A stretch of 64,000 bases of DNA. It comes from Gemmatimonadota bacterium. GTDB taxonomy: Bacteria > Gemmatimonadota > Gemmatimonadetes > Longimicrobiales > Gaopeijiaceae. Below, in pieces: positions 31,691 to 62,009 of the stretch; the stretch's first letter is position 1, and every line of letters starts with the position of its first letter. The notes beneath the pieces are model-generated. The model was given only the letters and a program-made list of their open reading frames with translations, searched no databases and was not told where the DNA came from. Position numbers and translations under genes: made by a program. The stretch covers positions 32,001 through 96,000 of the forward strand of contig JBDHHQ010000008.1 in the NCBI GenBank assembly GCA_039589315.1, read 5' to 3'.

Positions 31691-32995
31691 ATGAGCCTGG
31701 ATCGGCTGACCGCATGGCGAGTGGTGGCGCTCGGGGGGTCTCTCGTGGCCGCCCTGGCGGTCACCACGCGTCCAGCCCCGGCTCAGGAAGCGGCGGGGGC
31801 CGCCGCCGTCCGCGTCTTCCTGGACTGCCAGACCCGCGGCTGCGACTTCGACCACTTCCGCCGTGAGATCCGTTTCGTCAACTGGGTCATCGATCGCGCG
31901 GACGGTGACGTTCACGTCCTGATCACCTCCCAGGCATCGGGGGCGGGGCGCGCTTTCACGTTGGCGTTCATCGGCCTTGGAAGGTTCGAGGGAGATGACG
32001 CCGAGCTCATCTTCAACGCGTCCGACACGGACACGTCGGACGAGCAGCGGGGGGGGCTTACCCGGGCCATCGAGCTCGGACTGGTGCGTTACGCCAGTCA
32101 GACGCCACTGGCCGACCGTCTTTCCGTCACGTTTCAGCCCGTCGACTCCGGCGCGGTGCGGCTCACCGCCGGCGAGACGCAGATCTACGACCCGTGGGAC
32201 TACTGGGTCTTCCGCATCAGCGCCGGAGGTGAGTACAACGGCGAATCCCAGCAGCGCGGGACGAGCCTGTTCGGGTCTGTCTCGATAAACCGGACCACCG
32301 AGGCCCTCAAGATCCGTCTGAACGCTTCGATCTTCTACCGGGAGGACCAGTTCGATTTCGAGGACGAGACGTTCACCAGCATCGCCCGCTCCAACAGCGC
32401 CAGCGCGTACGCCGCACACAGCATCGGGGCGCAGTTCGCCACCGGGTTGCGGTGGGATATCTGGTCGTCGACGTTCTCCAACATCGACGTGGCCAACCGC
32501 CTGGCCTGGGCGTTCGAGTACAACGTGTTCCCATACTCGGCGTCGACCCGTCGCGAGCTCACCTTCCTCTATACCGTCGGCGTAAACGACTTCGGGTACC
32601 TGGAGACCACGATCTACGACAAGCTCGAAGAGCAGGTCGCAGATCACGCGCTGATCGTGTCGTTGGACCTGAAGCAGCCGTGGGGCGATGCGAGGTTCGA
32701 GCTCACGGGGCGACAGTACCTCCACGACGCGTCTCTCTACAGGATCTCGGGCGCCACCGGTGTGGAGGTGCGGCTCTTTCGTGGGCTCTCGTTGGACGTC
32801 TCGGGTTGGTACGCGGCCGTCAGGGACCAACTCTCGCTGCGGGCTGGGGACGCATCGCCCGAAGAGATCCTGCTCTTCAGGCGAGAGCTGGCCACCGACT
32901 TCCGCGTGGGCACGTCGCTCGGCCTGACGTATCGTTTCGGCTCCATCTTCAACAACGTCGTGAACCCCAGGCTGAACGAATTCCGGCGGCCCTGA
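31691..32995 (+). CDS. Exported protein, probable outer-membrane beta-barrel
   Basis: Signal peptide ending APA/QE; amphipathic aromatic-rich strands; C-terminus LGLTYRFGSIFNNVVNPR. Confidence 0.65.
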   Translation: MSLDRLTAWRVVALGGSLVAALAVTTRPAPAQEAAGAAAVRVFLDCQTRGCDFDHFRREIRFVNWVIDRADGDVHVLITSQASGAGRAFTLAFIGLGRFEGDDAELIFNASDTDTSDEQRGGLTRAIELGLVRYASQTPLADRLSVTFQPVDSGAVRLTAGETQIYDPWDYWVFRISAGGEYNGESQQRGTSLFGSVSINRTTEALKIRLNASIFYREDQFDFEDETFTSIARSNSASAYAAHSIGAQFATGLRWDIWSSTFSNIDVANRLAWAFEYNVFPYSASTRRELTFLYTVGVNDFGYLETTIYDKLEEQVADHALIVSLDLKQPWGDARFELTGRQYLHDASLYRISGATGVEVRLFRGLSLDVSGWYAAVRDQLSLRAGDASPEEILLFRRELATDFRVGTSLGLTYRFGSIFNNVVNPRLNEFRRP

Positions 32996-33220: not shown

Positions 33221-34282
33221 ATGGCACGAACGAACTCCCCGATCGACTCCCGGCGGCCCGTCGTCGTTCCGGATCCCCTCAGCGACGCCGATCTCCTGGC
33301 GGCGATCCGGCAGCATCTTCCTGGGCAGGGCCCGCATGCGATACGGGGGCGGCGTACCTTCAAGCGCCGGCAGGATTGGCGGGGCTACCGCTTGTTCGAG
33401 CGCGTGAAGGTCGACCGCCCGGGCGCGATCCCGCTGGAGCTCTGCCTCAAGTACCTCACGGCGGCCACCGGCTCGGGCCCGGCGACGGGCGCTTCGCAGG
33501 AAGCCCGCGCATACGAGTTTCTCAACGGCCTGCCGAGGGCCGGTGCGGCCCGCTACTTCGGACAGGTCCACATGCCGGAAGCCGGACATTCGATCCTGAT
33601 TCTCGAGTATGTGCACGGTAGGCGCCTCAAGAAGGTCACGAACGCCGACAGCTGGTCTGCGGTGGCCTCGTGGCTCGGCCGACTGCACGCGGAGCTTGCA
33701 GGGTCCGGCCTGAGCCACCGCGAGGATCTGGAGCTGCCCCGGCACGACGAGGGTTTCTTCCTCGGCTGGGCGGAGCGTGCCGCACGGAGCGCCGTGGAGC
33801 GCTGCCCGGAGGCCCGCACCCGGTTGGACGGCCTCCTCCAGGACTACGGCCGGGTCGCGGGGCCGCTCGCGAGCGCGAAGCCGACGCTGGTCCATGGGGA
33901 GCTCTATTGCACGAACATCATGATCCGGAACGACGCTCACCATTGCCGAGTCTGTCCCTTCGACTGGGAGACAGCCGCGATCGGGTGCGGTACGCTCGAC
34001 CTCGCCTACCTCGGGCGCCAGGAGCTGGGAATCGAGCGGGAGGACCTGCTGGCCGCGTACGCCCGCGGCTGGGCCGACGTGGCGGTCCGGCCACCCAGCA
34101 TGCCGACGCTACGGATTCAGCATGCCGCCGCGCTCGTGCACGAACGCGCATACCTCCTGTGGACCGCGGTTGTGCACCGGCGGGTGCCGGGGACGAAGAT
34201 CCTGAAGTACCTCGACATCCTGGAGCGTCTCATGACCGACCTGAAGGCGGCAGGTGGCCAGCCGGGGGCGCTTTCCGGATGA
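33221..34282 (+). CDS. APH/choline-kinase-fold phosphotransferase K1 (HGE variant)
   Basis: LCLKY, LILEYV, TLVHGELYCTNI, FDWE, LDLAYL; RBS GGAGG. Confidence 0.82.
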   Translation: MARTNSPIDSRRPVVVPDPLSDADLLAAIRQHLPGQGPHAIRGRRTFKRRQDWRGYRLFERVKVDRPGAIPLELCLKYLTAATGSGPATGASQEARAYEFLNGLPRAGAARYFGQVHMPEAGHSILILEYVHGRRLKKVTNADSWSAVASWLGRLHAELAGSGLSHREDLELPRHDEGFFLGWAERAARSAVERCPEARTRLDGLLQDYGRVAGPLASAKPTLVHGELYCTNIMIRNDAHHCRVCPFDWETAAIGCGTLDLAYLGRQELGIEREDLLAAYARGWADVAVRPPSMPTLRIQHAAALVHERAYLLWTAVVHRRVPGTKILKYLDILERLMTDLKAAGGQPGALSG

Positions 34283-34307
34283 AGCCGGCCGACGCGGGGT
34301 ATCGGTA

Positions 34308-35378
34308 GTGGGCGGCGACGACTGGGCCTCGGTCGAGGGAGTGGGCCGAAGATCCAAGTCCTGGCGGCCTGACGACATCGAGGTGGACGAAGCGACGCTG
34401 GGCGCCTCGGTTGCCAGGGCGCTGACCGAACGGTGCGGCCGGCCCGTACGCGTCACGTCCCTGGTTCGACGGCCCAGTCCCTACGCCACGGTGTTCCCGG
34501 CAGACGTCGTCGAGGTGCGCTTGGCCGACGGGGGTGCGAAGACGCTGTTCGTCAAATACCTGGGGACGGAGGAAGGAGACCACCCCGACAAGCTCGGGCC
34601 GGAGCGAGAGATCGGCCTGTACCGGGACATCCTCGACGGAGAAGGCCTACCGGTCGTGCGATGCTACGGTGCGCCCTGGGACACGCGCCTGGGCCGCTAC
34701 CAGTTGTTGCTGGAGCACGTGAACGACTGGAACTTGAAGTACCACGACCTGTCCGCCTGGTACCGGGCCGCCCACGAGCTCGGTCGGCTCCACGCCTGGT
34801 TCGCCCAGCGCGTGCCGATGCTCGAGAAGTGCGGCGTGCTGACCCGGCTGGACGGAGCCTACGTTTGGGGGTGGGCCCGCCGTGCCGGGGAGGAAGCGGC
34901 GCGACGGGGGCCGATCCTCCGCAACCGCCTGCAGGATCTGCTACGTGGGTATCATCCGGTGCCCGCTACCCTGGAGGCGGCGCCCGCCACCCTGGTCCAC
35001 AACGACTTGTCGCCGAAGAACGTGATTGCCGACCGCTCCCAGGAGCCCGCCCGCATCTGCCTCGTGGACTGGGAGAGCGCCGGGATCGGCTGCGGTCTCC
35101 TCGACCTGACCAACCTGTCCTACGGACTGGACGAGGAGGCTCAGACTCGCATGCGGGAGTCGTACCGGACCGGGCTTACCGCCGCGGGGGCCGAGGCTCC
35201 GGAGGGCAACGACGTGGCCCGTCAGGCCTTGGCGAGCGAGGCCCACAAGGCACTCTGGCGTTTGGCCCACTGCGGCGTGTGGGATCTTCCGGAGAAGGCC
35301 GTACACGGGTTCGCAGCCGAGGCCGAGGCGGCCCTGCGGGCTCTGCTCGCTCCGGTACCGGACCTCGGGGAGCGTTGA
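34308..35378 (+). CDS. APH/choline-kinase-fold phosphotransferase K2
   Basis: LFVKY, HPDK, TLVHNDLSPKNV, VDWE; start uncertain (ORF open from 34254). Confidence 0.85.
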   Translation: MGGDDWASVEGVGRRSKSWRPDDIEVDEATLGASVARALTERCGRPVRVTSLVRRPSPYATVFPADVVEVRLADGGAKTLFVKYLGTEEGDHPDKLGPEREIGLYRDILDGEGLPVVRCYGAPWDTRLGRYQLLLEHVNDWNLKYHDLSAWYRAAHELGRLHAWFAQRVPMLEKCGVLTRLDGAYVWGWARRAGEEAARRGPILRNRLQDLLRGYHPVPATLEAAPATLVHNDLSPKNVIADRSQEPARICLVDWESAGIGCGLLDLTNLSYGLDEEAQTRMRESYRTGLTAAGAEAPEGNDVARQALASEAHKALWRLAHCGVWDLPEKAVHGFAAEAEAALRALLAPVPDLGER

Positions 35379-35382
35379 TCCG

Positions 35383-36573
35383 GTGCGAATCCTCGTCGCG
35401 GGTGCACTCACCATCGAGCCCTTCTCCGCCGGCATCGCGTGGGACTGGATCCAGATCGCGGTGGGGTTGGAGAGACTCGGTCACGAGGTGTATTTCGTGG
35501 AGGAGCTGAAGAAGGGTTGGGCCGTCGACCGGGCCGGCCGCCGAAGCTCGTATGCGGGTAGTGTCAATCGTCCCCGCTTCACAGCTCTCGTGGAACGGTT
35601 TGGCCTGGGGGAGCGAGCCTGTCAGATCTACGACCGTGGGCGAGCCACGACGGGTCTGTCTCTGGCGGCCCTGCTGGCGGGGGCCGAGGACGCCGACCTG
35701 CTCCTGAATGTCTCGGGACACCTCAAGGACCCTCGGATCCTGGAGCTCGTGCCCCGGCGGGCCTACCTGGACCAGGATCCCGTGTACACGCAGCTGTGGG
35801 TCGCGGAATACGGGAAGGACCTGGGATTCGAAGATCACGACGTCTTCTTCACCGTCGGCCTCGACGTCGGTACGCCAGCGTGTCCCATCCCGGACGCCGG
35901 TGTGAGCTGGCATCCCATGCTGCCTCCCGTCGTCGTCGACTTCTGGGAGCCATCCGACTCCGGTGAGACTGGCCACTTTACCACTGTGGCCTCTCTTACC
36001 GGCTACGCGGAGCTCGGCTTCGCCGGACGGAGCTACGGCTCCAAGCACGCCGAGTTCCGCAGGTTCGCCGATCTTCCGAGACGGGCAGGCCAACCCCTGG
36101 AGGTGGCGCTCAAGGCCTTCCGCGAGGACGACCCTGTGATCCGGGAGATGCGGGCGGGCGGGTGGAAGATCAGCGACGGCAGCGAGGTGGACGGGCTGGA
36201 CAAGTACCAGGCCTACATCGCGGCCTCTCGCGCCGAGATCGGCATCGCCCAGCATGCCTACGTGGCCGGCCGATCCGGATGGTTCAGCGACAGGTCCACC
36301 CACTATCTCGCTACGGGCAAGCCGGTATTGGCTCAGGCCACGGGCTTCGAGCGCCACCTCCCCGTGGGGCGGGGACTTCTGTCCTTTGCCACGGCCGACG
36401 AGGCGCGCGGGGGCATCGAAGCCATCAACGCGGACTACCGAGCCCACTGCGAGGCCGCTCGGGAGCTGGCTGAAGTGCACCTGGACTACCGGGCCATCCT
36501 CCCGTCGTTCCTGGACGCGTGCATGTCCGCCCGGCCGCACGGGACTGCAGGCACGGGGAGCCCGGCGTCATGA
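35383..36573 (+). CDS. Atypical GT-B-fold glycosyltransferase-like protein (type a1)
   Basis: GLERLGHEVYFVE, RAYLDQDPVYTQLW, GWFSDRSTHYLATGKPVL. Confidence 0.75.
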   Translation: MRILVAGALTIEPFSAGIAWDWIQIAVGLERLGHEVYFVEELKKGWAVDRAGRRSSYAGSVNRPRFTALVERFGLGERACQIYDRGRATTGLSLAALLAGAEDADLLLNVSGHLKDPRILELVPRRAYLDQDPVYTQLWVAEYGKDLGFEDHDVFFTVGLDVGTPACPIPDAGVSWHPMLPPVVVDFWEPSDSGETGHFTTVASLTGYAELGFAGRSYGSKHAEFRRFADLPRRAGQPLEVALKAFREDDPVIREMRAGGWKISDGSEVDGLDKYQAYIAASRAEIGIAQHAYVAGRSGWFSDRSTHYLATGKPVLAQATGFERHLPVGRGLLSFATADEARGGIEAINADYRAHCEAARELAEVHLDYRAILPSFLDACMSARPHGTAGTGSPAS

Positions 36574-37751
36574 CGCGAGTCGTGGTGGCGACCACCAACT
36601 GGAGTCGACGGCCGGAGTTCGGAGGGCTTTCCTGGGTGCCCCTGCAGTACGTACTGGGGCTCCGGGACCTGGGCGTCGCCGCCTTCTGGATCGATCACCT
36701 CAAGGGCGTGGATCCGTTCCGGAAGGATCACACCGTGGACTACCTGCGGGCTCGGTTCCACGACCTCACCCGGAGCTTCGGGCTGGAAGCGGTCTCGGGC
36801 ATCGTCTATGACCACGGGCGCGCTCATTTCGGCCTACCCGCCGACGCGCTGAGGCGGCTCGCCAATGAGGCCGACCTGCTCCTGACGTTGGGCAAGCCGC
36901 CCCCCACCTCGACGCCACTCCTGACGATCGCGCGGCGCGCGTACGTGGACATCGACCCCGGTTTCACTCAGGTCTGGGCCCAGCAGCGGGACATCGGCCT
37001 CGGACCATACGACTACTTCTTCACCGTGGGGCAAAACGTCGGCTCCCCGGAGTTCCCCATCGACACGGGTGAGGTCTCGTGGCGGCCGATCCTGCCGCCG
37101 GTCCACCTTCCCTCGTGGCCGGCCCGAATCGACGATCGCTGCCGTCGCTTCTCGACAGTCGCGGACTGGCGGGGGAGTCAGACGGCTGAGCTGGACGGCG
37201 TGTGCTATGGTACGAAGCGCTCGGAGTTCATCCGGTTCCTGCAGGTGCCCCTCCAGACCGGATCTCGCATAGACCTGGCCCTTTGCATCGGTCAGCAGGA
37301 TCACGTGGACCTCGGCTTGCTGACCGGCCACGAGTGGCGGGTGCGAGATCCGTATCAGTACGCCGGTGACGCGTTCTCGTACCGGGAGTTCGTGCAGCGC
37401 TCACGGGGTGAGTTCGGGGTGGCTAAGCACGGCTATGTGCGGTCGGACTCCGGCTGGTTCAGTGACCGCACCGCATGCTACCTGGCCTCCGGCAAACCCG
37501 CCCTCGTGCAGTCGACCGGCTTCGAGGAGCGCGTGCCCACCGGCGAAGGACTCCTGACCTTCAGCGACCCGCCCGGGGCCGTGGCGGCCCTCCGTGAGGT
37601 CGAGGAGGACTACCTCCGACACTGCCACGCCGGCCGAGCGTTCGCTGAACGGCACCTCGACGCCGGTCGGATACTGACGGGCCTGCTGGAGCACGTAGGT
37701 TTGGCGCCCGGCGAGGGCGGCGTGACGAGGGCGGAAGGCCAGGCCCGATGA
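36570..37751 (+). CDS. Atypical GT-B-fold glycosyltransferase-like protein (type b1)
   Basis: RRAYVDIDPGFTQVW, YGTKRSEF, GWFSDRTACYLASGKP. Confidence 0.75.
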   Translation: MTRVVVATTNWSRRPEFGGLSWVPLQYVLGLRDLGVAAFWIDHLKGVDPFRKDHTVDYLRARFHDLTRSFGLEAVSGIVYDHGRAHFGLPADALRRLANEADLLLTLGKPPPTSTPLLTIARRAYVDIDPGFTQVWAQQRDIGLGPYDYFFTVGQNVGSPEFPIDTGEVSWRPILPPVHLPSWPARIDDRCRRFSTVADWRGSQTAELDGVCYGTKRSEFIRFLQVPLQTGSRIDLALCIGQQDHVDLGLLTGHEWRVRDPYQYAGDAFSYREFVQRSRGEFGVAKHGYVRSDSGWFSDRTACYLASGKPALVQSTGFEERVPTGEGLLTFSDPPGAVAALREVEEDYLRHCHAGRAFAERHLDAGRILTGLLEHVGLAPGEGGVTRAEGQAR

Positions 37752-38728
37752 GCCCGGACGCGGAGACCTTGCGCCGCCTCCTCGAGGGAGCGTTCCTTCC
37801 CACCCTGTCGGGAGGGCAGGATCTCGACGGATTCACCTATGCGCCCTTCGAGGGCGCAGGATGGTACCGCGCGTACACAGTGGACGTTCGGTTCCGGGAT
37901 GGCGCCGCCCACCGGCTCTTCCTCAAGGACCTCGGGGCGCCGAGGGGCGGCAAGGGAGACATGGTTGGCCGCAGGGAGCGCGAGCGCTGCGTCTACGAAC
38001 GTCTCCTACAGCCAGAGCGTGACGGAACGGCCCGTCTCTATGGGGTCGAGTGGGATCCAGAGGGGGCACGCTATTGGCTCCTGCTCGAGTACGTCGAGGG
38101 CACCCCGGTGAGGCAGCTCGATTTCGAGACCTGGCGCGGCGCGGCCGCCTGGCTCGCCCGGTTCCAGGCGGGGTTCAGCGCCCACACGGGGAGGGCCGCC
38201 CGGTGTGACCTGGTCCGGCACGACGAGCCCTTTTTCCTGGACGTGGCCCGTGGAGCCGTCGACGCGGTGACCCTGTGGTGCCGAGCGGCAGGAGCTCGGG
38301 TACTCGAGCTCCTGGATGGCTACGACCGCCATCTCTCCCGACTCCTCGAGCAGCCGCCCACCCTGGTTCACGGTGCCTTTCTTCCCATGCAGATCCTGGC
38401 CGTGGGTGACGATGGTGGGCGGTTGTGCCCCGTCGACTGGGAGCTGGCTGGCTTGGGCCCACCGCTCTACGACCTCGGCTTCCTGGCGTACGGGTTCAAG
38501 GGCGCGGAGCGGCGCTCCCTCCTGGCCGCGTACCGGGAAGAAGCCACGCAGCTGGGCTCGGCGGTACCGGAAGACCTGTCCAGGCGAGTCGCCTGCGTGG
38601 AGGTGCACCGAACGCTCGCCGCCCTCGGACAGTCAGTGGAGCGGGCCTACGACGACGAGGCGATCGGCGAGTACCTGGACATCCTGGAGGGACTGTTGGC
38701 CAGGATCGGCGCAGAGGAGGTGGTCTGA
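37748..38728 (+). CDS. APH/choline-kinase-fold protein K3 (degenerate catalytic loop)
   Basis: LFLKD, LLLEYV, TLVHGAFLPMQI, VDWE, YDLGFL. Confidence 0.8.
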   Translation: MSPDAETLRRLLEGAFLPTLSGGQDLDGFTYAPFEGAGWYRAYTVDVRFRDGAAHRLFLKDLGAPRGGKGDMVGRRERERCVYERLLQPERDGTARLYGVEWDPEGARYWLLLEYVEGTPVRQLDFETWRGAAAWLARFQAGFSAHTGRAARCDLVRHDEPFFLDVARGAVDAVTLWCRAAGARVLELLDGYDRHLSRLLEQPPTLVHGAFLPMQILAVGDDGGRLCPVDWELAGLGPPLYDLGFLAYGFKGAERRSLLAAYREEATQLGSAVPEDLSRRVACVEVHRTLAALGQSVERAYDDEAIGEYLDILEGLLARIGAEEVV

Positions 38729-38817
38729 GTGGCCACCGGATCCTGGTGCTCCGACGGGCGCGCCCCCAGCAGGCGGCACGCTTCCACGGCTTCGACCCCG
38801 GGCACGGGTCGATCTCC

Positions 38818-40008
38818 ATGAGGATCGTGCTCGGCGCCGTCGTCTCCCGTTTCCTTCCCGGCGAAGTCCTGCACCGAGCCCAGTACGTGGAGGGGCTACG
38901 CCGCCTGGGCCATGACGTGATCTGGATCGAGGAGCTGGAGCCGAAGGGCTGTGTCGACGGCCGAGGATGGCCCACGGACTATGCGCACTGCGCCAATACC
39001 GAGGGATTCCGTCGCGCCATGGCGTACTTCGGCCTGGAGGAGCGGTCCGCCCAGATCTACGACGGAGGCCGAGCCACGGTAGGGCTCGGCCTCGCTGGGG
39101 TTCTCGACGAGGTGGGCTCGGCGGACCTCCTCCTCAACTTCTCGGGGCACGTGCGTCACCCGGAGATCCTGGACCGGATTCCCAGGCGCGCCTACCTGGA
39201 TTCCGACCCCGTATTCACCCAGCTGTGGAATGACCAATACGAGGAAGACCTGGGCTTCGACGCCCACCATGTCTTCTTCACCCGGGGCGCGAATCTCGCC
39301 GCTGGTCTCTGTCGGCTTCCCGACTGCGGTCTCGACTGGCAACCCTACATGCCGCCGCTCGTCTTGGACTTGTGGCCGGCCCTCACCGCGCCGAGCCCTG
39401 GCCCGTTCACGACGATCGCGGCTTGGGGGCGGTACGGAGACCTGTTCCACGAAGGCGACTGGTATCGGTCGAAGACGTCCGAGTTCCGCCGGTTTGCCGA
39501 TCTGCCGCGGGCCTCCCCCCACGAGTTCCGTCTGGCGCTCTCCGGCCGGGAGTACGATCCGGAGACTGCCGATCACCTGGTCACCCGGGGCTGGCGGCTC
39601 TTGGAGGGCGGAGCCCTGGGGTCCGTCGACGACTACGTGGCGTTCATTCGCCACTCCGGTGCGGAGATCGGGGTGGCCAAGCACGCGTACGTCCGGGCTC
39701 GAACCGGTTGGTTCAGCGAGCGGAGCACGCAGTACCTGGCAAGCGGCAAGCCCGTGTTGGTGCAGGACACGGGACTGGAGGGGGTGCTCCCTACGGGCCG
39801 GGGATTGGTGACCTTCGAGACCCTCGACGAGGCCGCAGCCGGCGCGGCCGAGATCATGGGCAGCTACCCGGTACACGCTCGGGCGGCCCGGGAGCTGGCC
39901 ACGGCGTGCTTCGACCACGAGAAGCTGCTGGACGAGTTGCTCCAGCGATGCTTCTCTGAGGTCGAGGGCTCACCGCCGCCGAGACCGAGCGGAGGGGCCG
40001 TCCGATGA
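38818..40008 (+). CDS. Atypical GT-B-fold glycosyltransferase-like protein (type a2)
   Basis: GLRRLGHDVIWIE, RAYLDSDPVFTQLW, GWFSERSTQYLASGKPVL. Confidence 0.75.
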   Translation: MRIVLGAVVSRFLPGEVLHRAQYVEGLRRLGHDVIWIEELEPKGCVDGRGWPTDYAHCANTEGFRRAMAYFGLEERSAQIYDGGRATVGLGLAGVLDEVGSADLLLNFSGHVRHPEILDRIPRRAYLDSDPVFTQLWNDQYEEDLGFDAHHVFFTRGANLAAGLCRLPDCGLDWQPYMPPLVLDLWPALTAPSPGPFTTIAAWGRYGDLFHEGDWYRSKTSEFRRFADLPRASPHEFRLALSGREYDPETADHLVTRGWRLLEGGALGSVDDYVAFIRHSGAEIGVAKHAYVRARTGWFSERSTQYLASGKPVLVQDTGLEGVLPTGRGLVTFETLDEAAAGAAEIMGSYPVHARAARELATACFDHEKLLDELLQRCFSEVEGSPPPRPSGGAVR

Positions 40009-41189
40009 CCGCGAGTCGCGAGGCCCGCGAGGGGTGGGTGGAGGGGCGCAACACGCCCAGGGTCATCGTCTCTACCCGCAACACCAGCCTCGTGCCCGAG
40101 TTCGGCGGGTCGTTCTGGGTGCGGCTGCAGTACCTCTTGGGCTTCCGGGACCTGGGTGTCGATGCCTATTGGATCGACCGTTTGGACCCGCCCGATCCCG
40201 GCCGGCAGGCTCACAGCATCGAGTACATGATCCGGCGGTTCGCCTCCTCTCTCGAGGCCTTCGGCCTGGGAGATCGTTTCGCTGTCCTCTACGAGCGAGA
40301 GGGACAGTGCTTCGGCGGGGACCAGACGGACGTACGCGAGCGAGTGGACGGGGCAGACGTCCTGATCAACATCGGCGGATTCCTCCCCCAGGGGTCGCTA
40401 CTCACCCGGATCCCACGGCGGGCCTACGTGGACGTCGATCCCGGCTTCACCCAGATCTGGGCTCACGACGTCGACGTCTGGCTCGAGCAGCACACGTGCT
40501 TCTTCACCGTCGGTCAGAACGTGGGAGCCCCCGAGTTCCCCATCCCCACGCGTGACATCCCCTGGCGCCCCATCCTTCCGCCGGTCCACCTGCCGTCTTG
40601 GCCGGCTCGCATCGATGAGCGCAGCCGCCGCTTCTCGACGGTGGCCGACTGGCGTGGATCTCAAGACGCGCTGTTCGAGGGCGAGTATTACGGCACGAAG
40701 CGCTCCGAGTTCGTCCACTACCTGCACGTACCGTTACGGGCGGGTCGGCGCATCGAAGTCGCGCTCTGCATCGGTCAGCAGGATCACGAGGATCTGGGTC
40801 TGTTGCTGGACCACGACTGGCGAGCACGCGAGGCATACCGGTACGCCGGCGACCCATTCGCCTATCGCGAGTTCATCCAGTACTCCCGGGCCGAGTTCGG
40901 GATCGCCAAGCACGGCTACGTCAAGTCGAACTCGGGCTGGTTCAGCGACCGCACCGCCTGCTACCTGGCCTCGGGCAAACCAGCGATCGTGCAGTCGACC
41001 GGGTTCGAGCATCGACTGCCCACGGGGCAGGGGCTGCTCACCTTCCGGAGCGTGGACGAGGCTGTCGCTGCCATCCAGGACGTCGAAGAGCACTACCTGG
41101 ACCACTGTGCCGCGGCCCGCTCCTTCGCTGAAGAGCACCTCGACGCGGCGAAGACCCTCGTGTACATGCTCGAGCAGCTGGAAGGGTGA
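40005..41189 (+). CDS. Atypical GT-B-fold glycosyltransferase-like protein (type b2)
   Basis: Close paralog of 36570-37751: RRAYVDVDPGFTQIW, YGTKRSEF, GWFSDRTACYLASGKP. Confidence 0.75.
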   Translation: MTASREAREGWVEGRNTPRVIVSTRNTSLVPEFGGSFWVRLQYLLGFRDLGVDAYWIDRLDPPDPGRQAHSIEYMIRRFASSLEAFGLGDRFAVLYEREGQCFGGDQTDVRERVDGADVLINIGGFLPQGSLLTRIPRRAYVDVDPGFTQIWAHDVDVWLEQHTCFFTVGQNVGAPEFPIPTRDIPWRPILPPVHLPSWPARIDERSRRFSTVADWRGSQDALFEGEYYGTKRSEFVHYLHVPLRAGRRIEVALCIGQQDHEDLGLLLDHDWRAREAYRYAGDPFAYREFIQYSRAEFGIAKHGYVKSNSGWFSDRTACYLASGKPAIVQSTGFEHRLPTGQGLLTFRSVDEAVAAIQDVEEHYLDHCAAARSFAEEHLDAAKTLVYMLEQLEG

Positions 41190-42205
41190 CGATGGCTGAG
41201 GCCGCGGGTCCGATCCGCGTGGACGAGGATCTCCTCCGGAGGCGCGTGGAGGGCGTGCTTCGGGAGACGCTCGGTCGGCACCGGTCGGTGCGCGACCTGA
41301 GGCGCGTTCCCAGCGAGTTCGCCACCGTGTTCCCGGCCGACGTGCTCTACGTGACCTTGGACGACGGGCGGGAGCTGCGGCTGTTCCTCAAGCACCTGGG
41401 TGCCAGCGACCATCCGGAGAAGAAGAAGCCCGAAAGGGAGGCCATCGTATACCGGGAGCTGCTGGCGGGATCAGATCTGCCGGTGCCGGCTTTCTACGGT
41501 GCCGCGTGGAACCCCGACGGCGAACGGCAGGAGCTCTACCTCGAGTTCATCGACGACTGGTCCCTGAAGTACCAACCCATCGACCAGTGGTACCTGGCCG
41601 CAAGCGTCCTCGCCGAGTTCCACGTCGCGATGGCGGCTCGGGACGAGGAGCTCACTCGGTGCGACGCCCTGCAGTCCCTGGATGCGCCCTACTTTCGGAC
41701 CTACGCGAATCGGGCCCGTAACCAGCTGATGGGGCACACGCCCGCACTGCTCAACGCGTTGGACGCGGTGCTGTCTGGGTACGACCGGGTCGTTCGAGAG
41801 CTCGTCCGCGCGACGCCGACGTTGGTGAACGCCGACCTCTCTCCCCGCAACGTCCTGGCCGACCGGTCGAGGGCGCCGGCACGGGTGTGCTTCATAGACT
41901 GGGAGAGCGCAGGTAGGGGGGCTGGCGCTCTCGACATCGCTCACCTCGCCTACGGGCTCGAAGGCGAACCCAGGAAGCTGATGCTGGACGCCTACTTCGG
42001 TGGCCTGGCAGGAACCCCCCTCGATCCCGGCTCACCCCTTCGGCGCCGCCGCCTGGTGGCGGCCGCCGAGGCTCACAAGGCGTTGTACCGCATCGCCCGC
42101 TGCAACTACCGGGGCTATTCCGAGCGGACGGTGACCAAGTTGGTCGCCGAAGCGCGCACCAGCTCGCGAGAGCTCGAGCAGGCCTCCGGCGAGGAGTCGG
42201 ACTGA
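41186..42205 (+). CDS. APH/choline-kinase-fold phosphotransferase K4
   Basis: LFLKH, HPEK, TLVNADLSPRNV, IDWE. Confidence 0.83.
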   Translation: MTMAEAAGPIRVDEDLLRRRVEGVLRETLGRHRSVRDLRRVPSEFATVFPADVLYVTLDDGRELRLFLKHLGASDHPEKKKPEREAIVYRELLAGSDLPVPAFYGAAWNPDGERQELYLEFIDDWSLKYQPIDQWYLAASVLAEFHVAMAARDEELTRCDALQSLDAPYFRTYANRARNQLMGHTPALLNALDAVLSGYDRVVRELVRATPTLVNADLSPRNVLADRSRAPARVCFIDWESAGRGAGALDIAHLAYGLEGEPRKLMLDAYFGGLAGTPLDPGSPLRRRRLVAAAEAHKALYRIARCNYRGYSERTVTKLVAEARTSSRELEQASGEESD

Positions 42206-43188
42206 TGTCCCGACCGCACGTCGCCACCCGTTCCCTGGATCACGAGCGCGGTCTCCTGGAAGAGATTCTGACCGGCTGGTCGGGGGACGAGATCCGGATC
42301 CGCGCGCTGGACCGCCGGGCCTGCGAATTCGCCGGGAGGTGGCCGTCCCAGATCCTGGACGCGGAGCTCGAGAGCGGCGCTCGCCTCTCGGTCATACGGA
42401 AGCAGGTCGGCGTGAGCGGCCATCCGGACAAGTCATATCCCGACAAGGAGATCCGGATGTACGCGCGGGTGCTGCTGGGGGGGTCCCTGCCCGTGCCCCG
42501 GTACTTCGGCGCGAGGTGGGACGAGGCGGCGCAGACGCACGAGCTCTATCTCGAATACGTGGACGCCTTGTCCCTCAAGTACCAGGGCATCGCTCTGTGG
42601 TACAGGGCGGCGGAGGCCATCGGCCAGCTCCACGCGCACTTCGCGCACCGCCTCGACGACCTCAGGGCGGAGGAGGCGCTTCAAACCCTGGACGCTGCGT
42701 ACTTTCGACGTTGGGCGGAGCGGGCCCGCGTCGAGCTCGACGCGCACCTCCCGGATCTGAGCCCCGAGCTCGCCACGCTGCTGTCCGGGTACGACGACGT
42801 GGTCGTGCTCCTGGCTGAGGCGCAGCGGACCCTGGTGCACAACGACCTGGGGGCGCGCAACGTGGTGGTGGACGCCGGACGGGCCCCCCCGCGCGTGTGC
42901 ATCGTCGACTGGGAGAACGCGGGTATCGGGTGCGGCGTGGTCGATCTCACCCACCTGACCTACGGGTTGGCGGAAGACGAGCGCCGCCGGATGTGCCGGG
43001 CGTACTTCGCGAAGCTCGAGGGCTCGCCTCTGGCCGTCGGTGAAGTCGCTGGCGCGGACCGGCTGGCCGCGGCGGGGGAGGTGCATCGCGTGGTCTATCG
43101 GCTCGGACGATGCCGCCGCCGAGGTTACAGCCGGGAGGCGGTGCTGGGCCTGCTCGCACACGCCGTCCGATTCCGCAATCGCATCTGA
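42205..43188 (+). CDS. APH/choline-kinase-fold phosphotransferase K5
   Basis: HPDK, LYLEYV, TLVHNDLGARNV, VDWE. Confidence 0.85.
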   Translation: MSRPHVATRSLDHERGLLEEILTGWSGDEIRIRALDRRACEFAGRWPSQILDAELESGARLSVIRKQVGVSGHPDKSYPDKEIRMYARVLLGGSLPVPRYFGARWDEAAQTHELYLEYVDALSLKYQGIALWYRAAEAIGQLHAHFAHRLDDLRAEEALQTLDAAYFRRWAERARVELDAHLPDLSPELATLLSGYDDVVVLLAEAQRTLVHNDLGARNVVVDAGRAPPRVCIVDWENAGIGCGVVDLTHLTYGLAEDERRRMCRAYFAKLEGSPLAVGEVAGADRLAAAGEVHRVVYRLGRCRRRGYSREAVLGLLAHAVRFRNRI

Positions 43189-43258
43189 GGAGAAGCGTGG
43201 ACGCTCGGTACAACTTCCCGGACATCGCGGACGTCGTGACTCGCTCTGCCGGTCGGTC

Positions 43259-44413
43259 ATGAAGATCATCGTGTCGTCCAACTTCTCACACTGTGCCCAC
43301 CGTCCAGGGGCCCTGGACAACCGCGTGGCCCACGTACGTGGGCTGGCGAGCCTCGGTCACGAGGTCTACGTGATAGAGGACGTGGCTCCCGAGAGGTGCT
43401 TCGACGCTAGATACGAGCCTGTTCGGTTCGAGGACTGGGCCGGCCGCGACCGCTTCCGCTCTGTCGTCGGCGCGCTCGGTCTGCGGACCAGGTCCGCGCT
43501 CATCTACGACCGGGGTCGGGCGACGTACGGGATGTCTCTGGCCGAGGTGGAGTCTCACGCGAGGTCGGCCGATCTCCTCGTCAGCATCGCCAGCGCCCTG
43601 GATACGGAGTCCGTGCGAGACGTGGTCCCGTGCCGGGTCTATGTCGACACGGCGCCGGCCAAGGTCCAGGTCTACCACGCTCAGTACGGGATAGACTACG
43701 GCTTCGAGCACTATCATCACTTCTTCACGTTCGGATTGAACATCGGGTCCGCGGACTGTCCGATCCCCACCTGTGGCGTGCAGTGGCGGGGAATCCTGCC
43801 TCCCGTGGTCCTGGCCGATTGGCCCCGGGCAACGTCGCTCGAAGGCGACCGCTTCACGACCGTATCGAGCTGGGCCGGAAGCAAGCACACGTTCGACTAC
43901 GCGGGGATCTACTCGGGAGACAAGGCGGACGAGTGGAGACGATTCGCCGAGCTCCCGGGGAAGACCGACCAGACGCTCGAGATCGCGTTGAACATCCATC
44001 CCGCCTACCGGGAGGACATCGAGCTGCTGGAGGGAAACGGATGGGTCCTGCGGCCTGCGGCCGAGCTCGATTCCGTCGAGACCTACCGGACGTACCTCAG
44101 CGAATCCCGGGCGGAGCTCAGCGTCGCCAACGCCCGCTACGTGCGCTTCAACACCGGGTTCTTCGGTGACCGGACGGCTCGCTACCTCGCCTGCGGCAGG
44201 CCGGCCCTGATCCAGCGGACCGGGTTCGATGGCCAGCTGCCGGTGGGGGAAGGACTCCTGACGTTCGAGACGCTGGAGGAGGCCGCCGCAGGTATCCAGG
44301 AGATCAACGGGCGCTACGCCCGCCACGCCGAGGCGGCCCGGAGCATCGCGGAAGAGTACTTCGACGCCGAGCGCGTGCTCTCCCGAGTGCTCGCGGAGAT
44401 CGGTTGTCCATGA
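43259..44413 (+). CDS. Atypical GT-B-fold glycosyltransferase-like protein (type c1)
   Basis: MKIIVSS, GLASLGHEVYVIE, SGDKADEW, GFFGDRTARYLACGRP. Confidence 0.75.
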   Translation: MKIIVSSNFSHCAHRPGALDNRVAHVRGLASLGHEVYVIEDVAPERCFDARYEPVRFEDWAGRDRFRSVVGALGLRTRSALIYDRGRATYGMSLAEVESHARSADLLVSIASALDTESVRDVVPCRVYVDTAPAKVQVYHAQYGIDYGFEHYHHFFTFGLNIGSADCPIPTCGVQWRGILPPVVLADWPRATSLEGDRFTTVSSWAGSKHTFDYAGIYSGDKADEWRRFAELPGKTDQTLEIALNIHPAYREDIELLEGNGWVLRPAAELDSVETYRTYLSESRAELSVANARYVRFNTGFFGDRTARYLACGRPALIQRTGFDGQLPVGEGLLTFETLEEAAAGIQEINGRYARHAEAARSIAEEYFDAERVLSRVLAEIGCP

Positions 44414-46221
44414 GCAGCGAGCGCCAAGCGCCCGCCGACCTCGCGTTGATGCGCCGCGCCCTCGTCATGGCGCGGCCGTACTGGCCTCACATCGTCGCGA
44501 CGTTCCTGATCACGTTGGTCGCGACCCCCATCGCCCTCCTGCAGCCACTGCCGCTCAAGATCGCCGTCGACAGTGTCATTGGCGACGACGCCCTCCCGGG
44601 CTTTCTGGAGCCTTGGGTCCCACGGGCCTTTTCGTCCTCGACGTTGGGCCTGCTGGTCTTCTCGGCAGCCCTCGTCGTGCTGGTCGAGCTTCTGGCACGC
44701 CTGCACAAGCTGGTGACCGCGGTGCTCCAGATCTACACGTCCGAACGGCTCGTCCTGGACGTGCGCTCGCAGCTCTTCCGGCACGCGGAGGGCCTGTCGC
44801 TCTCCTACCATGACGCCAGGGGCTCGGCCGACGCGTTGTACCGGCTCCAGTCGGACGCTCCGTCCATCAACGCCATCGCGCTGGGAGGGGTCGTCCCGCT
44901 CATTCGCTCCATCGTCACGTCGATCGCCATGCTGTACGTCACCGCGCGCATCGACCTGACCCTGACTCTCGTGGCGGTCACGGTGTTTCCGGTCACGCTC
45001 ATGGTGACGCTCATCGCCAAGCGGCGATTCCGGAGCCGGTGGCGCGGCGTGAAGGAAATCGAGAGCTCTGCGCTGGCCGTGGCGCAAGAAGTGCTCACGA
45101 GCCTCCGGGTGGTGAAGGCATTCGGGCAGGAGGAGAGAGAGCGCCGGAGATTCGAGCGTGTGTCGCAACAGGGGATCGGAGCCCGGATCCGGGTCCACAT
45201 CGCCCACAGCGGATTCAGCATCCTGGCGGGGTTGATCCGGGCCGGCGGCACGGCGGCGGTCCTGTTCTTGGGCGTGCTGCACGTCCTGGATGGGACGCTC
45301 ACCTTGGGCTCGCTGTTGCTCGTGATGTCCTACCTGGCCCAGCTCTACGGTCCGCTACTCGCGCTGGGGCAGCAGTTCACGGCTCTGCAGCGCTCGTTCG
45401 CCAGCGCCGAGCGGGTGTTCGAGTTCCTGGACCGGGAGCCCGACGTGCAGGAGGCACCGAACCCACGCCGCCTGGAGAGGGCACGCGGAGCCTTCGTATT
45501 CGACGGTGTCTCGTTCTCGTACGGGGAGGAGACGGTGCTCGACGGGTTCGAGCTGTCGGTGCCTGCTGGCGCTCGCGTGGGTGTCGCAGGCCGAACCGGG
45601 GCGGGGAAGACGACCCTGATGAATCTTCTCGCTCGGTTCTACGATCCGACCAGTGGTCGTATCCTGCTGGACGACGTCGACATCCGGGAGTTCAAGGTCT
45701 CGGATCTACGGGGGCAGTTCGGCATCGTGCTGCAGGAGCCGGTCCTGTTCTCCACCACGGTCGCGGAGAACATCGCGTACGGGTGCCCGACCGCGTCGAG
45801 GTCCGAGATCGTGGGTGCGGCCAGGGCGGCCAACGTGCACGACTTCCTCGAGGGGCTGCCCAACGGCTACGAAACCGAGGTGGGTGAGCGGGGGATGCGC
45901 ATGTCCGGCGGAGAGCGACAGCGCATCGCTCTGGCCCGGGCCTTCCTGAGGGACGCACCGATCCTGATCCTCGACGAGCCCACCAGCTCGGTGGACATCG
46001 AGACCGAGAGCTCGATCATGGAGGCCATGCAGCGGCTCATGCGGGGGCGCACGACCTTTCTCATCGCCCATCGTCTGCAGACCCTGGAGGCGTGCGACCT
46101 GCTTTTGGTCATGGACGGTGGGAGGCTGATCTCGGTGACTACGAAGGTAGAGGAGGCCCTGGGCGCCGTGCAGCAGGCAGGGGCGTTGGACGCTGCAACC
46201 GAAGCCGACGGCCAGCCGTGA
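44410..46221 (+). CDS. ABC exporter, fused TMD-NBD (MsbA/NdvA-like)
   Basis: N-terminal TM domain, Walker A GRTGAGKT, signature MSGGERQR, Walker B ILILDE, IAHR. Confidence 0.95.
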   Translation: MSSERQAPADLALMRRALVMARPYWPHIVATFLITLVATPIALLQPLPLKIAVDSVIGDDALPGFLEPWVPRAFSSSTLGLLVFSAALVVLVELLARLHKLVTAVLQIYTSERLVLDVRSQLFRHAEGLSLSYHDARGSADALYRLQSDAPSINAIALGGVVPLIRSIVTSIAMLYVTARIDLTLTLVAVTVFPVTLMVTLIAKRRFRSRWRGVKEIESSALAVAQEVLTSLRVVKAFGQEERERRRFERVSQQGIGARIRVHIAHSGFSILAGLIRAGGTAAVLFLGVLHVLDGTLTLGSLLLVMSYLAQLYGPLLALGQQFTALQRSFASAERVFEFLDREPDVQEAPNPRRLERARGAFVFDGVSFSYGEETVLDGFELSVPAGARVGVAGRTGAGKTTLMNLLARFYDPTSGRILLDDVDIREFKVSDLRGQFGIVLQEPVLFSTTVAENIAYGCPTASRSEIVGAARAANVHDFLEGLPNGYETEVGERGMRMSGGERQRIALARAFLRDAPILILDEPTSSVDIETESSIMEAMQRLMRGRTTFLIAHRLQTLEACDLLLVMDGGRLISVTTKVEEALGAVQQAGALDAATEADGQP

Positions 46222-46341
46222 AGATCATCCACCCAGGGGCCGAAACCGGAATGGCGAATGCGTTCGGCGGACCTGCTCGGTGAGGCGTAGCACTCCAGCG
46301 GGGCCGAGGCCTCGCGGCCCCGCGCCGAAGAAGGGGTCGGC

Positions 46342-47508
46342 GTGCGACGCGGGTTGAGAGTGATCGTCTCGAGCGTGTTCTCACGCACGCGATACGCGGA
46401 GCTCCCCGGAGATCGCGACGCCCGGATGGCCTTCGCTGTGGGCTTCCGCGCGTTGGGGCACGACGTGTTCGTCGTGGAGGAGGTGGAAGAGGGTCAATGC
46501 CTGGATTCAAGTGGCCAGATCGTGCCCTTCGACGAGTGGCGCGGGCGTGATCGCTTCCTGGCGACCATGCGGGAGTATGGCTTCGCCGATCGATGCTGCC
46601 TCGACTACCGCGGCGGACAGGCGACGGTCGGCATGAGTCGGCACGCGCTGCGGGGTGCCGCGAGCGGTGCGGATCTGCTCCTGGCCGTCGGCGGGCGCCT
46701 CCGCAACCCTGAGCTTCTCGAGGCCGCCGGGCACCGCGCCTACGTGGATATCAACCCCGGCAAGACGCAGGTCTACGCGTTCGAGTACGACGTCGACTAC
46801 GGACTCTCCGCTTTCGACTCGCACTTCAGCGTGGGGCTCGCGATTGGCCAGCCCCAGTGTCCACTCCCGACCGGGGGCTTCCAGTGGCATCCCCTCGTGA
46901 TGCCGGTCGTCCTCGACCGCTGGCGCCCGAACGCCGCTTCAGGTCGAGCCTTCACGAGCATTACGAGCTGGAACCGCAAGCACGACTTTGACTTTCAGGG
47001 CGTCGCCTCTGGAGACAAGGTGGAGCAATGGCTGCGGTTCGTCGACCTTCCGAACCGCACCGGCCAGAGCATGGAGATCGTGCTCCCGGTTCGGGAGATC
47101 AGCGCGCGGGACCTGGGTCTCCTCACGGCCAGTGGTTGGCTGGTCAGGGATGGTGAGCGACAGGAGACGCTCAACGACTACGTGCAGTTGCTGTCTTCGT
47201 CGAAGGCGGAATTCAGCGTGGCGAACGGAAGATACGTGAAGTTCCGGACGGGTTGGTTCAGCGACCGGACTTCTCGGTACATGGCGACCGGCCGGCCCGT
47301 CCTCGTCCAGTCGACGGGGATCGAGCACCTCCTACCCGTGGGTCGAGGGTTGCTGACGTTCCGCACGATCGAGGAAGCGGTGTCGGGAATCGACGAGATC
47401 AACTCGGATCACGCGGGCCACTCCAGCGCTGCGCTGGAGATCGCCCGTGAGTTTTCGGCGTCTGACAGGGTGCTTGCCGGGCTTCTGCGCATCGTGGGGC
47501 TCTCATGA
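46342..47508 (+). CDS. Atypical GT-B-fold glycosyltransferase-like protein (type c2)
   Basis: RVIVSS, GFRALGHDVFVVE, SGDKVEQW, GWFSDRTSRYMATGRP. Confidence 0.75.
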   Translation: MRRGLRVIVSSVFSRTRYAELPGDRDARMAFAVGFRALGHDVFVVEEVEEGQCLDSSGQIVPFDEWRGRDRFLATMREYGFADRCCLDYRGGQATVGMSRHALRGAASGADLLLAVGGRLRNPELLEAAGHRAYVDINPGKTQVYAFEYDVDYGLSAFDSHFSVGLAIGQPQCPLPTGGFQWHPLVMPVVLDRWRPNAASGRAFTSITSWNRKHDFDFQGVASGDKVEQWLRFVDLPNRTGQSMEIVLPVREISARDLGLLTASGWLVRDGERQETLNDYVQLLSSSKAEFSVANGRYVKFRTGWFSDRTSRYMATGRPVLVQSTGIEHLLPVGRGLLTFRTIEEAVSGIDEINSDHAGHSSAALEIAREFSASDRVLAGLLRIVGLS

Positions 47509-48407
47509 GCACCGCGGATGGGCCCGGAGCACCTACTTTCTATCTCCTGGGTGCGCAGAAGTGTGGCACGAGCTCGCTCCACTACTACTTGCACCAGCAC
47601 CCGGAGATCTGCGTCTCATGGCCCAAGGAGCCCGTGTTCTTCGAGGCGTACTGGGACCGGGGCGTGCCGTGGTACTGGAACACGTACTTCTCGCATTGGG
47701 CCGGCGAGCCCGTCATCGGCGAGGCTCGGGTCCGCAACCTGTATCTGCCGTACGTGGCACCGCGGATCAAGCAGGTATCACCGAACGCAAAGCTCGTGGC
47801 GATTGTCCGGAATCCGGTGGATCGGGCCTTCTCGACGTGGATGATGTGGACGGCCCGTGGCCACGAGCGCCGTACGTTCGAGGAGGCGGTCGAGGCCGAG
47901 CTCGCGCTACTCGACTCGGGCACGGGGCTGGACGGAGAGGACGGGGAGCGCCGCTGGATCGAGAATCTGATCGTTGCGGACCGGAAGGGCCTCGACTTCT
48001 GGCCGCGGACCTTCATGGCATGTGTCGAGCTGGGGTATTACGCGCGGCAGCTGAGACGCTACCTCGAGTTCTTCCCCCGAGACTCCCTGCACGTGCTCTT
48101 CACCGAGGAGCTACGGGAGGATCCCGTCCGAGAGATGCAGCGCCTCTTTCGATTCCTCGATGTCGATCCGCAGGTGCCTCTGGAGGATCTGCAGGTCCTG
48201 AACCGGTCTTTTCTGAAGAAGGGCGTCCGGCGGGTGCTCGACGACCGGGCGGCAGACCTGGGAGACCCCGCAGAGGCGACGGTCACGACCTACCACCGCG
48301 CCCTCATGAAACCCGAGACCCGACGCTTTCTCCTGCGGCACTACGAAGCGCACAACCGTGATCTCGGCCTCTTGTTGGACGTGGACCTGTCGCGTTGGGA
48401 CGAGTAG
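47505..48407 (+). CDS. PAPS-dependent sulfotransferase
   Basis: 5'-PSB GAQKCGTSSL, KEPVFF, 3'-PB RNPVDRAFS. Confidence 0.92.
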   Translation: MSTADGPGAPTFYLLGAQKCGTSSLHYYLHQHPEICVSWPKEPVFFEAYWDRGVPWYWNTYFSHWAGEPVIGEARVRNLYLPYVAPRIKQVSPNAKLVAIVRNPVDRAFSTWMMWTARGHERRTFEEAVEAELALLDSGTGLDGEDGERRWIENLIVADRKGLDFWPRTFMACVELGYYARQLRRYLEFFPRDSLHVLFTEELREDPVREMQRLFRFLDVDPQVPLEDLQVLNRSFLKKGVRRVLDDRAADLGDPAEATVTTYHRALMKPETRRFLLRHYEAHNRDLGLLLDVDLSRWDE

Positions 48408-50635: not shown

Positions 50636-50665
50636 GGAGCTCAGAGGTAACCGCCTTTCCGGGGT

Positions 50666-52995: not shown

Positions 52996-52998
52996 GGG

Positions 52999-54916: not shown

Positions 54917-54928
54917 GCTGCCCTTCGG

Positions 54929-59950: not shown

Positions 59951-62009
<2,059 letters not shown>

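Follow-up and report, generated by a model that had tools for sequence, protein, structure and literature searches.

What does an operon make in which proteins of the APH kinase fold alternate with glycosyltransferases (GTs) of an atypical GT-B type around an ATP-binding cassette (ABC) exporter? The question is raised by a 64,000-nucleotide (nt) stretch of contig JBDHHQ010000008.1 from a Gemmatimonadota bacterium, hereafter the window, in which a preliminary description had noted five such kinases (K1-K5), six GT-like paralogs (GTa, GTb, GTa', GTb', GTc and GTc') and one exporter, and had proposed an uncharacterised phospho-glycan assembly system composed of repeated kinase+GT modules. The observation itself was confirmed and its first interpretation was partly supported. 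Our preferred reading, to which we give a probability of roughly 55%, is that the operon directs the assembly of a glycan or glycolipid, short but bearing many decorations, at the inner membrane face, with phosphorylation and sulfation, followed by ABC export. The constant core of this system is formed by a fusion protein encoded upstream of the array (T), the exporter and one GT-B protein, with the kinases as a frequent but optional module.

All 12 open reading frames (ORFs) of the array were confirmed on the plus strand in exactly the order first described, K1-K2-GTa-GTb-K3-GTa'-GTb'-K4-K5-GTc-ABC-GTc' (Table 1). Most junctions do overlap (7/11, the K1/K2 one being counted only with the longest start of K2), the other four leaving gaps of 4, 70, 89 and 120 nt. 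The GC content at third codon positions (GC3) of the array genes, 0.82-0.88, is close to the 0.86-0.88 of enolase, glyA and ftsH in the window, supporting that these are ordinary host-like coding sequences and not shadow ORFs. A recent horizontal arrival of the operon was rejected, since both GC and GC3 match the host. There are no further copies in the genome, as all six GT family matches and all five kinase family matches fall at the array. The genes first delimited are thus real, but the unit extends beyond them, upstream to the T gene and downstream to a sulfotransferase, so that the fixed core lies partly outside the array. A promoter and terminator scan yielded one site of each kind, which is not above shuffle expectation.

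The composition of the core emerged from the distribution of the genes. We drew 400 genomes once from the phylum and scored only four to five candidates in each, related genomes not being independent. The GT family was present in 29 genomes, and T was found in 28 of these and in none of the 371 others. Kinases were detected in 23 of the 29 GT-positive genomes, with two weak matches in the remaining 371. In a second sample of 150 genomes, from the class of a Solirubrobacterales genome (G443), GT and T occurred in the same three genomes, 4-8 kb apart, and T in 0/147 others. A wider set comprised 76 loci, taken from the best 80 of 408 matches, with a bias towards the patterns of the query and with many loci truncated where a contig ends. 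Fifty of them supplied the T test in other phyla, and T was found in 47 of the 50 GT-positive genomes, including an unpublished one (G431, locus L018) that also enters the 76-locus counts and alignments A8 and A9. Among the 76 loci, a kinase was present in 66, YdjC in 39 and the ABC gene within reach in 18, so the kinase-GT linkage is conserved across phyla, as had been anticipated, and is reinforced by the GT-kinase fusions described below. The contrast between the tight T-GT co-occurrence and the gaps in kinase occurrence across samples is what defines T, the exporter and one GT-B protein as the core. Recurring partners, identified by clustering the ORFs of 87 stretches and from gene maps, were almost all glycan enzymes. 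The system is found in at least seven phyla (Gemmatimonadota, Verrucomicrobiota, Acidobacteriota, Planctomycetota, Actinomycetota, Chloroflexota and Deinococcota), and the host labels are non-Firmicutes in 76/76 loci, two of them reading only "bacterium". Very similar loci stand under unrelated taxon names (L014/L015, L037/L067, L068), so that some assemblies may carry an incorrect host label.

The repetition of kinases and GTs, which had been taken as the building principle of the system, proved to be a local matter. The array of five kinases and six GTs was seen only in the window and in the same-genus genome G001, pointing to tandem or local expansion at the genus level; locus L001 has the same gene order as the window, with 78% identity to GTa. 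The window is the most expanded copy among those seen. In quick trees, with SH-aLRT (Shimodaira-Hasegawa-like approximate likelihood ratio test) support only, GTb and GTb' form a lineage-specific pair, and GT subtype G7 is sister to G8. The window belongs to a G8/G9/G7 type, of which simpler versions read T-ABC-four kinases-G8-G9 (L002) or T-ABC-one K3-type kinase-G8-G9 (L005, L006). A minimal type (L095-L098, two such loci in G004) consists of T-ABC-G1 followed by a GT4 and a PIG-L deacetylase, with no kinase or YdjC. A long type reads T-ABC-G3-(GT2s, GT4, sulfo- and methyltransferases)-G11-G12-G10-Glu kinase-YdjC, and a G6 type carries canonical HGD kinases, YdjC and a RimK-like ATP-grasp enzyme. 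Deacetylases, sulfo-, methyl- and ATP-grasp enzymes are thus swapped in among relatives, and a phosphoesterase/beta-propeller gene lies upstream in some loci.

Gene fusions tie the components together. Among the top 150 representatives of the GT family, 53 were of at least 480 aa and 52 of these were scanned, revealing six GT-kinase fusions in four GT subtypes (P0247, P0351, P0345, P0316, P0298 and P0343; four detected by Pfam at 1e-10, six by our own profile), six ABC-G3 fusions (P0293, P0271, P0269, P0274, P0302 and P0259), one GT-YdjC fusion and many GT-GT2 fusions, some with sulfo- or methyltransferase domains; some of the GT-kinase and ABC-GT proteins carry an extra GT2 domain. Moreover, in 6 of the 20 G6-type loci fetched (L087, L088, L089 at 5279-8344, L090, L103 and L104) the exporter carries a C-terminal kinase domain with a canonical HGD loop, and the next gene encodes a RimK-like ATP-grasp enzyme; these six represent one family and probably one event. 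The GT-kinase, ABC-GT and ABC-kinase fusions place GT, kinase and exporter in one pathway at the cytoplasmic face. Tandem double-APH fusion proteins are also encoded directly 3' of the ABC gene at L003:5963-7978, L007:5918-7879 and L008:6742-9096.

T unites a glycoside hydrolase (GH) barrel, a GT2 domain and membrane helices in one chain. Its barrel is GH2-like, with PF02836 in 16/16 T proteins and no GH17 match; both catalytic Glu residues of clan GH-A are invariant in the 16 barrels, weak matches to GH72 transglycosylases were obtained in 7/16, and GH158 beta-1,3-glucanases were among the Protein Data Bank (PDB) matches. The closest solved relative (PDB 9fz9/9g4n/9g5g, E 3e-18) is labelled only as a GH2 catalytic domain protein. 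The GT2 domain is nearest to MftF (162 bits, NCBIfam) and carries the motif QQxGY, whereas processive synthases carry QxxRW. Hydropathy revealed no hydrophobic segment ahead of residue 688 and membrane helices only after it, none of them before the GT2 domain, and the barrel is predicted to be cytoplasmic. The exporter combines PF00664 and PF00005 in one chain, with no peptidase domain, and its best NCBIfam models are MsbA-like.

This domain composition brings up the alternative that T, in the manner of NdvB or Cgs, synthesises a cyclic or periplasmic glucan. The GT2 domain would then polymerise a beta-glucan and the GH-A barrel would close it into a ring by transglycosylation, the GT-B proteins and kinases would add branches and charge, and a ChvA/NdvA-like exporter would release a soluble osmoregulated glucan. 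Cyclic beta-glucans are indeed decorated later. NdvB (GH17-GT2) and Cgs are GH/GT fusion glucan synthases (PMC10237404; PMC10901819), and T resembles them and their exporter ChvA in joining a glycosidase fold and a GT2 fold in one membrane protein served by ABC export, in the NdvB order GH-A, GT2, membrane (PMC10237404), and in having all its soluble domains, by prediction, in the cytoplasm, as in Cgs (PMC10901819). The invariant Glu pair, the GH72 and GH158 matches and the fact that T adjoins the ABC gene in most loci point the same way. Nevertheless, the predicted cytoplasmic, GH2-like barrel differs from the periplasmic GH17 domain of NdvB, which membrane helices set apart from its GT2, the GT2 motif is of a non-processive type, an obligatory GT-B partner family accompanies T, and the exporter reaches only 274 bits with the ChvA model, whose cut-off is 585. 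The system is also present in Actinomycetota and Chloroflexota, which to our knowledge have no classical periplasm. We consider a glucan synthase unlikely.

The five kinases deserve their family name, as all exceed the cut-off of PF01636 (34-50 bits, cut-off 23.2) and share the K, E and DWE residues. Kinase function, which had been assumed for all of them, is another matter, since the catalytic Asp of the HxDxxxxN loop is kept in K2, K4 and K5 but is replaced by Glu in K1 and by Ala in K3, where Gln additionally replaces the metal Asn. K1 and K3 are predicted from these residues to be weak or inactive. A K3 model (predicted local distance difference test, pLDDT, 92.8) has the CAK/APH fold, with APH-like, homoserine, N-acetylhexosamine (NahK, Z 21.1) and choline kinases tied at Z about 20-21.3, followed by YtaA (19.8), LxmKY (18.8), TvaE (14.5) and WaaP (10.6); none of the five kinases has a Kdo/WaaP-family Pfam match at E 0.01. 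In the quick tree, K2, K4 and K5 cluster together as a lineage-specific set within a larger clade in which Asp is retained, and K3 falls in a 13-row clade whose catalytic-site residues are highly variable. K1 sits on a long branch without a settled position and is a possible orthologue of the Glu-type core kinase.

That Glu-type kinase is the commonest cluster in relatives, with Glu in 48/52 and Asp in 4/52 members (one locus being counted twice) and K, E, N and D retained, and it lies directly 3' of GT subtype G10 in 48/58 cases. Its loop reads HGEF(Y/F)xSN in loci L014-L081 (for example L017:12308-13345), with all ATP and metal residues kept. A complex prediction for the G10 transferase and Glu-type kinase of relatives (alignments A8/A9) gave no answer, with a score of 0.00, and is not used as evidence. 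The idea of one obligatory kinase that is always a pseudokinase was rejected, as G6-type loci have canonical HGD kinases and some loci have no kinase. By hydropathy, neither the five kinases nor the six GTs contain membrane or signal segments.

The kinases suggest a different product, a secreted small-molecule glycoside or signal (an aminoglycoside, a pseudo-oligosaccharide or a Nod-factor-like compound) on which phosphate would serve for self-protection or as an export tag. By sequence, the kinase profile best matches kinases of natural-product pathways (capreomycin, viomycin and corramycin phosphotransferases), the exporter is fused to a kinase in some loci, and the partners include YdjC or GT4+PIG-L deacetylases, a NodS-type methyltransferase, a sulfotransferase, a RimK-like ATP-grasp enzyme and the phosphoesterase/beta-propeller gene. 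However, the array kinases score 15-31 bits with NCBIfam natural-product kinase models whose cut-offs are above 180, the recurring neighbours include no cyclitol synthase, non-ribosomal peptide or polyketide synthase, acyltransferase or aminotransferase, and many loci contain long GT2/GT4 runs typical of envelope glycan clusters, which makes a small molecule improbable as well.

The GT-like proteins measure 384-396 aa with the starts chosen, and their pairwise local identity is 36-60%. The alignment contained every motif listed in the preliminary description: GLxxLG or GFxxLG, a RAYLDQDP-type motif, SK, TK or DK followed after two residues by EF, EW or QW, and a GWFSDRSTHYLATGKP-type motif. 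GTa, the sole GT modelled (125 sequences, pLDDT 94.7), has two Rossmann-like domains in a GT-B fold (Foldseek E 1.6e-11), which bears out the proposed fold; its best matches are BshA (Z 24.1, root-mean-square deviation 3.7, 322/396 residues aligned), PimA (23.4) and AviGT4 (22.9), and its identity to all solved GT-B chains matched is 10-14%. GT4 and PF13524 had been named earlier as families for comparison. The nearest Pfam family is the CgeB-like PF13524, whose 25-bit cut-off was passed by GTc (28.3) and GTc' (26.7) but not by GTb' (23.1), in each case over the C-terminal part only, the other three giving no match, and GT4 PF00534 had no match in any of the six. NCBIfam returned no match for the six proteins, PDB sequence searches with GT profiles gave none under E 0.03, GTa had none in a plasmid collection, and in the ESM Atlas GTa and T fall only in generic or unnamed clusters. 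The family is large, with 1937 matches among 8000 scored candidates and, when grouped at 50% identity, at least 1534 clusters with E-values up to 1e-30.

In 206 full-length domains of the family from the fetched loci (L077/L078 were left out as duplicates of L001), R304 and a K/R at 221 are present in 206/206, D130 in 190/206 and D132 in 203/206, while the position aligned with the ribose-binding Glu of GT4 is C, R, H, T, A or Q and in 0/206 Glu. GT113 enzymes (Gtf3/GtfC) share the YLAxGxP tail as a weak match and bind UDP-sugars through two basic residues together with a catalytic Asp, in Gtf3 Arg179/Lys246 for the diphosphate and Asp101 (PMC12809243), a pattern that R304, K/R221 and D130 follow when mapped by motif order, not superposition. 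From this likeness the simplest inference is that the GT-B paralogs are retaining nucleoside diphosphate (NDP)-sugar transferases, as predicted from conserved residues. The fold, the tail and the comparable order of one Asp and two basic residues are thus common to PF13524, GT113 and GT4 retaining enzymes, but the proteins have low identity to solved chains, lack the GT4 Glu, exceed the PF13524 cut-off in only 2/6 cases and form a family of their own. Members of GT113 are about 40% identical to each other with Z of about 45 (PMC12809243), whereas the GT family gives a profile E of 0.1-0.25 over the tail only, Z 18.8 and 10% identity, which is not similarity at the family level.

The CgeB link allows for a protein or peptide acceptor, as when CgeB modifies CgeA or Gtf3 modifies serine-rich proteins, or as in a glycosylated ribosomally synthesised and post-translationally modified peptide with LanK/pseudokinase pairs, followed by ABC export. 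CgeB weakly transfers glucose from UDP-glucose to CgeA (PMC13577073), and the enzymes of class V lanthipeptides include pairs of a kinase and a pseudokinase (LxmKY and TvaE, with the Z values above). We regard this as very improbable, because no conserved acceptor, precursor, HopA1-type lyase or other recurring lyase of the class V lanthipeptide/thioamitide kind was found among the scanned neighbours, where only ORFs above 90-100 aa were called, the exporter has no peptidase domain, and the tight link to T is not explained. Still less credit can be given to the proposal that the kinases are anomeric sugar kinases of the NahK/AmgK/maltokinase type whose sugar-1-phosphates serve the GT-Bs directly as donors, like phosphorylases in synthesis: NahK among the tied folds of K3, the missing ribose-binding Glu (206/206), the lack of a conserved nucleotidyltransferase and the GT-kinase fusions agree with it, but Gtf3/GtfC bind UDP-sugars with the same tail and without that Glu (PMC12809243), two basic residues of the diphosphate type are kept in every domain, some loci have GTs but no kinase, and the Z differences among APH-type kinases lie within ties.

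For the preferred reading, decorated glycan assembly and export, the observed gene order, folds, motifs, co-occurrence and fusions lead us to infer the following steps, with a putative product, donor and acceptor. The GT2 domain of membrane-anchored T would place the first sugar or sugars onto a membrane-held acceptor, and the six soluble GT-B paralogs (subtypes G7, G8 and G9) would add one linkage each. K2, K4 and K5 would transfer phosphate to glycan hydroxyls, either while the chain grows or once it is complete, and the sulfotransferase would add sulfate. K1 (Glu) and K3 (Ala/Gln) may act as binding or scaffold partners. The cytoplasmic GH-A barrel of T could trim the chain, or release or transfer it from its carrier. 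The product would then be flipped or pumped out by the single-chain exporter, with the last GT or kinase at the cytoplasmic face of the latter. Each lineage would couple the same T-ABC-GT core to different tailoring enzymes.

Several results weigh against this pathway. The co-occurrence of kinases with the GT family fails in 6/29 GT-positive genomes of the phylum sample, and a linked kinase is absent in 3/3 GT-positive genomes of the 150-genome class sample, which means that the family can do without phosphorylation. In 48 of the 52 members of the commonest kinase subfamily, Glu replaces the canonical Asp. No priming phosphoglycosyltransferase, ligase or polymerase was found among the recurring neighbours, nor a conserved nucleotide-sugar pathway, an epimerase cluster being present in 11/87 loci. 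The exporter could not be assigned to a substrate class by NCBIfam models. Finally, a search of this genome, which is 95% complete, did not detect YdjC, and the PIG-L genes of the genome are on other contigs. A bolder reading, possible but less likely than not, is a previously unrecognised glycoconjugate pathway that spans phyla and has a GT-B family to itself. In it, the cytoplasmic fusion T would serve for start and release, a fused GT or kinase domain would gate the single-chain exporter, and a conserved Glu-type APH subfamily would do a non-canonical job. That subfamily may assist the G10 transferase allosterically or as a scaffold, or it may transfer a phosphoryl group to an acceptor that is anionic beforehand.

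We compared the operon with known systems. In E. coli O9a, WbdA, WbdD and Wzm-Wzt make an ABC-dependent O-polysaccharide with kinase capping. The Wzm/Wzt pathway is defined by a chain that grows on undecaprenyl diphosphate and receives its cap at the non-reducing end. In Klebsiella O7, an AmiN-like kinase phosphorylates the terminal rhamnose in ABC-dependent synthesis (PMC11231755). Both share with our operon cytoplasmic GT modules and a kinase-fold enzyme that acts, in our operon by prediction, on the glycan before ABC export, the O7 kinase being of AmiN/APH type (PMC11231755). They differ from it in having a two-component Wzm/Wzt exporter where the window encodes a single chain; moreover, no methyltransferase-kinase terminator was seen, and multiple stand-alone kinases and pseudokinases, a GH-A/GT2 fusion core and occurrence in phyla without lipopolysaccharide (LPS) distinguish our system. 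The LPS inner-core locus of Pseudomonas unites waaP, wapP and wapQ with waaG and msbA. It likewise holds several kinases, GT-B enzymes and an MsbA-type exporter, but the kinases of the window are of APH/CAK type (Z 10.6 with WaaP against 21) and the system extends to Actinomycetota and Chloroflexota. In B. subtilis, cotS/ytaA and cotSA/ytcC are inherited together, and the catalytic Asp has been lost from several spore kinases (PMC2860764), recalling the pairing of APH/CAK-fold kinases and pseudokinases with GT-B enzymes, the repeated loss of Asp and the YtaA-K3 similarity found here. The partners there, however, belong to the COG0438 GT4s and are accompanied in spore formers by UDP-sugar genes, with no T fusion or exporter (PMC2860764); the partner GTs of our system are not GT4, and its hosts are non-Firmicutes. 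The statement that no characterised pathway matches was upheld, but the pairing of kinase and GT-B has precedents in cotS/ytaA-cotSA/ytcC (PMC2860764) and Klebsiella O7 (PMC11231755). No description of the operon or the GT family was found in the literature searched, which comprised few subscription papers and main texts without supplementary gene lists.

Table 1. Genes of the unit and its surroundings, numbered from the first position of the window.
Feature	Position	Strand	Remarks
T: GH2-like clan GH-A TIM barrel, MftF-like GT2, C-terminal membrane helices	28459..31326	+	longest ORF (955 aa); true start possibly further downstream
DUF481-like family protein with signal peptide	31691..32995	+	between T and K1
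K1, APH-fold protein	33221..34282	+	catalytic loop HGELYCTN, Glu for Asp
K2, APH-fold kinase	34254..35378	+	intact HNDLSPKN loop; start uncertain
GTa, GT-B protein, subtype G8	35383..36573	+	structure modelled
GTb, GT-B protein, subtype G9	36570..37751	+	motif alignment, tree
K3, APH-fold predicted pseudokinase	37748..38728	+	HGAFLPMQ, catalytic Asp and metal Asn lost
GTa', GT-B protein, subtype G8	38818..40008	+	motif alignment, tree
GTb', GT-B protein, subtype G9	40005..41189	+	60% identical to GTb
K4, APH-fold kinase	41186..42205	+	NADLSPRN, catalytic Asp kept
K5, APH-fold kinase	42205..43188	+	intact HNDLGARN
GTc, GT-B protein, subtype G7	43259..44413	+	without the otherwise near-invariant second Asp of DxDP
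Single-chain ABC exporter	44404..46221	+	PF00664 + PF00005; MsbA/HepA/ChvA-like, under all NCBIfam cut-offs of those names
GTc', GT-B protein, subtype G7	46342..47508	+	motif alignment, Pfam, tree
Sulfotransferase	47505..48407	+	4-nt overlap with GTc'
Convergent operon: glucose-1-phosphate cytidylyltransferase (RfbF), NAD epimerase/dehydratase, two C-methyltransferases, GT2	48429..53793	-	

The sulfotransferase is likely the final tailoring gene of the unit. The CDP-sugar operon converging on it accompanies the system in the same genus only; it may make a branched methyl sugar and is only a candidate for a link to the system. The gene between T and K1 encodes a member of the DUF481-like family, which we take to be outer-membrane barrels; since it adjoins the system only in this genus and at one other locus, the protein is an accessory or a passenger. 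A DUF481-like homologue follows G9 in L091, and DUF5916 or TonB-type barrels stand beside the cluster at other loci. A 120-aa ORF at 31332-31694 was rejected as a gene, given its non-coding-like composition, the absence of a Pfam match and a single 51-residue match in the same genus. The flanks of the window (1-28100 and 54000-64000) are ordinary housekeeping regions with dnaG, recJ, ksgA, glyA, enolase, tilS, hpt, ftsH, folP and cdaA.

In conclusion, the pathway is real, widespread and undescribed in the literature searched, and it resembles ABC-dependent glycan assembly with kinase decoration yet falls outside each named system tested. If the preferred reading is true, a share of common soil and sediment bacteria would make a charged glycan or glycolipid new to science. 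The system would then offer a large, unassigned GT-B family and a GH-A/GT2 fusion, together with APH-fold kinases that stand beside their GT partners and run in a natural series from active through Asp-to-Glu to dead forms, and the role of CotS-type kinase/GT pairs would become directly testable with soluble enzymes.

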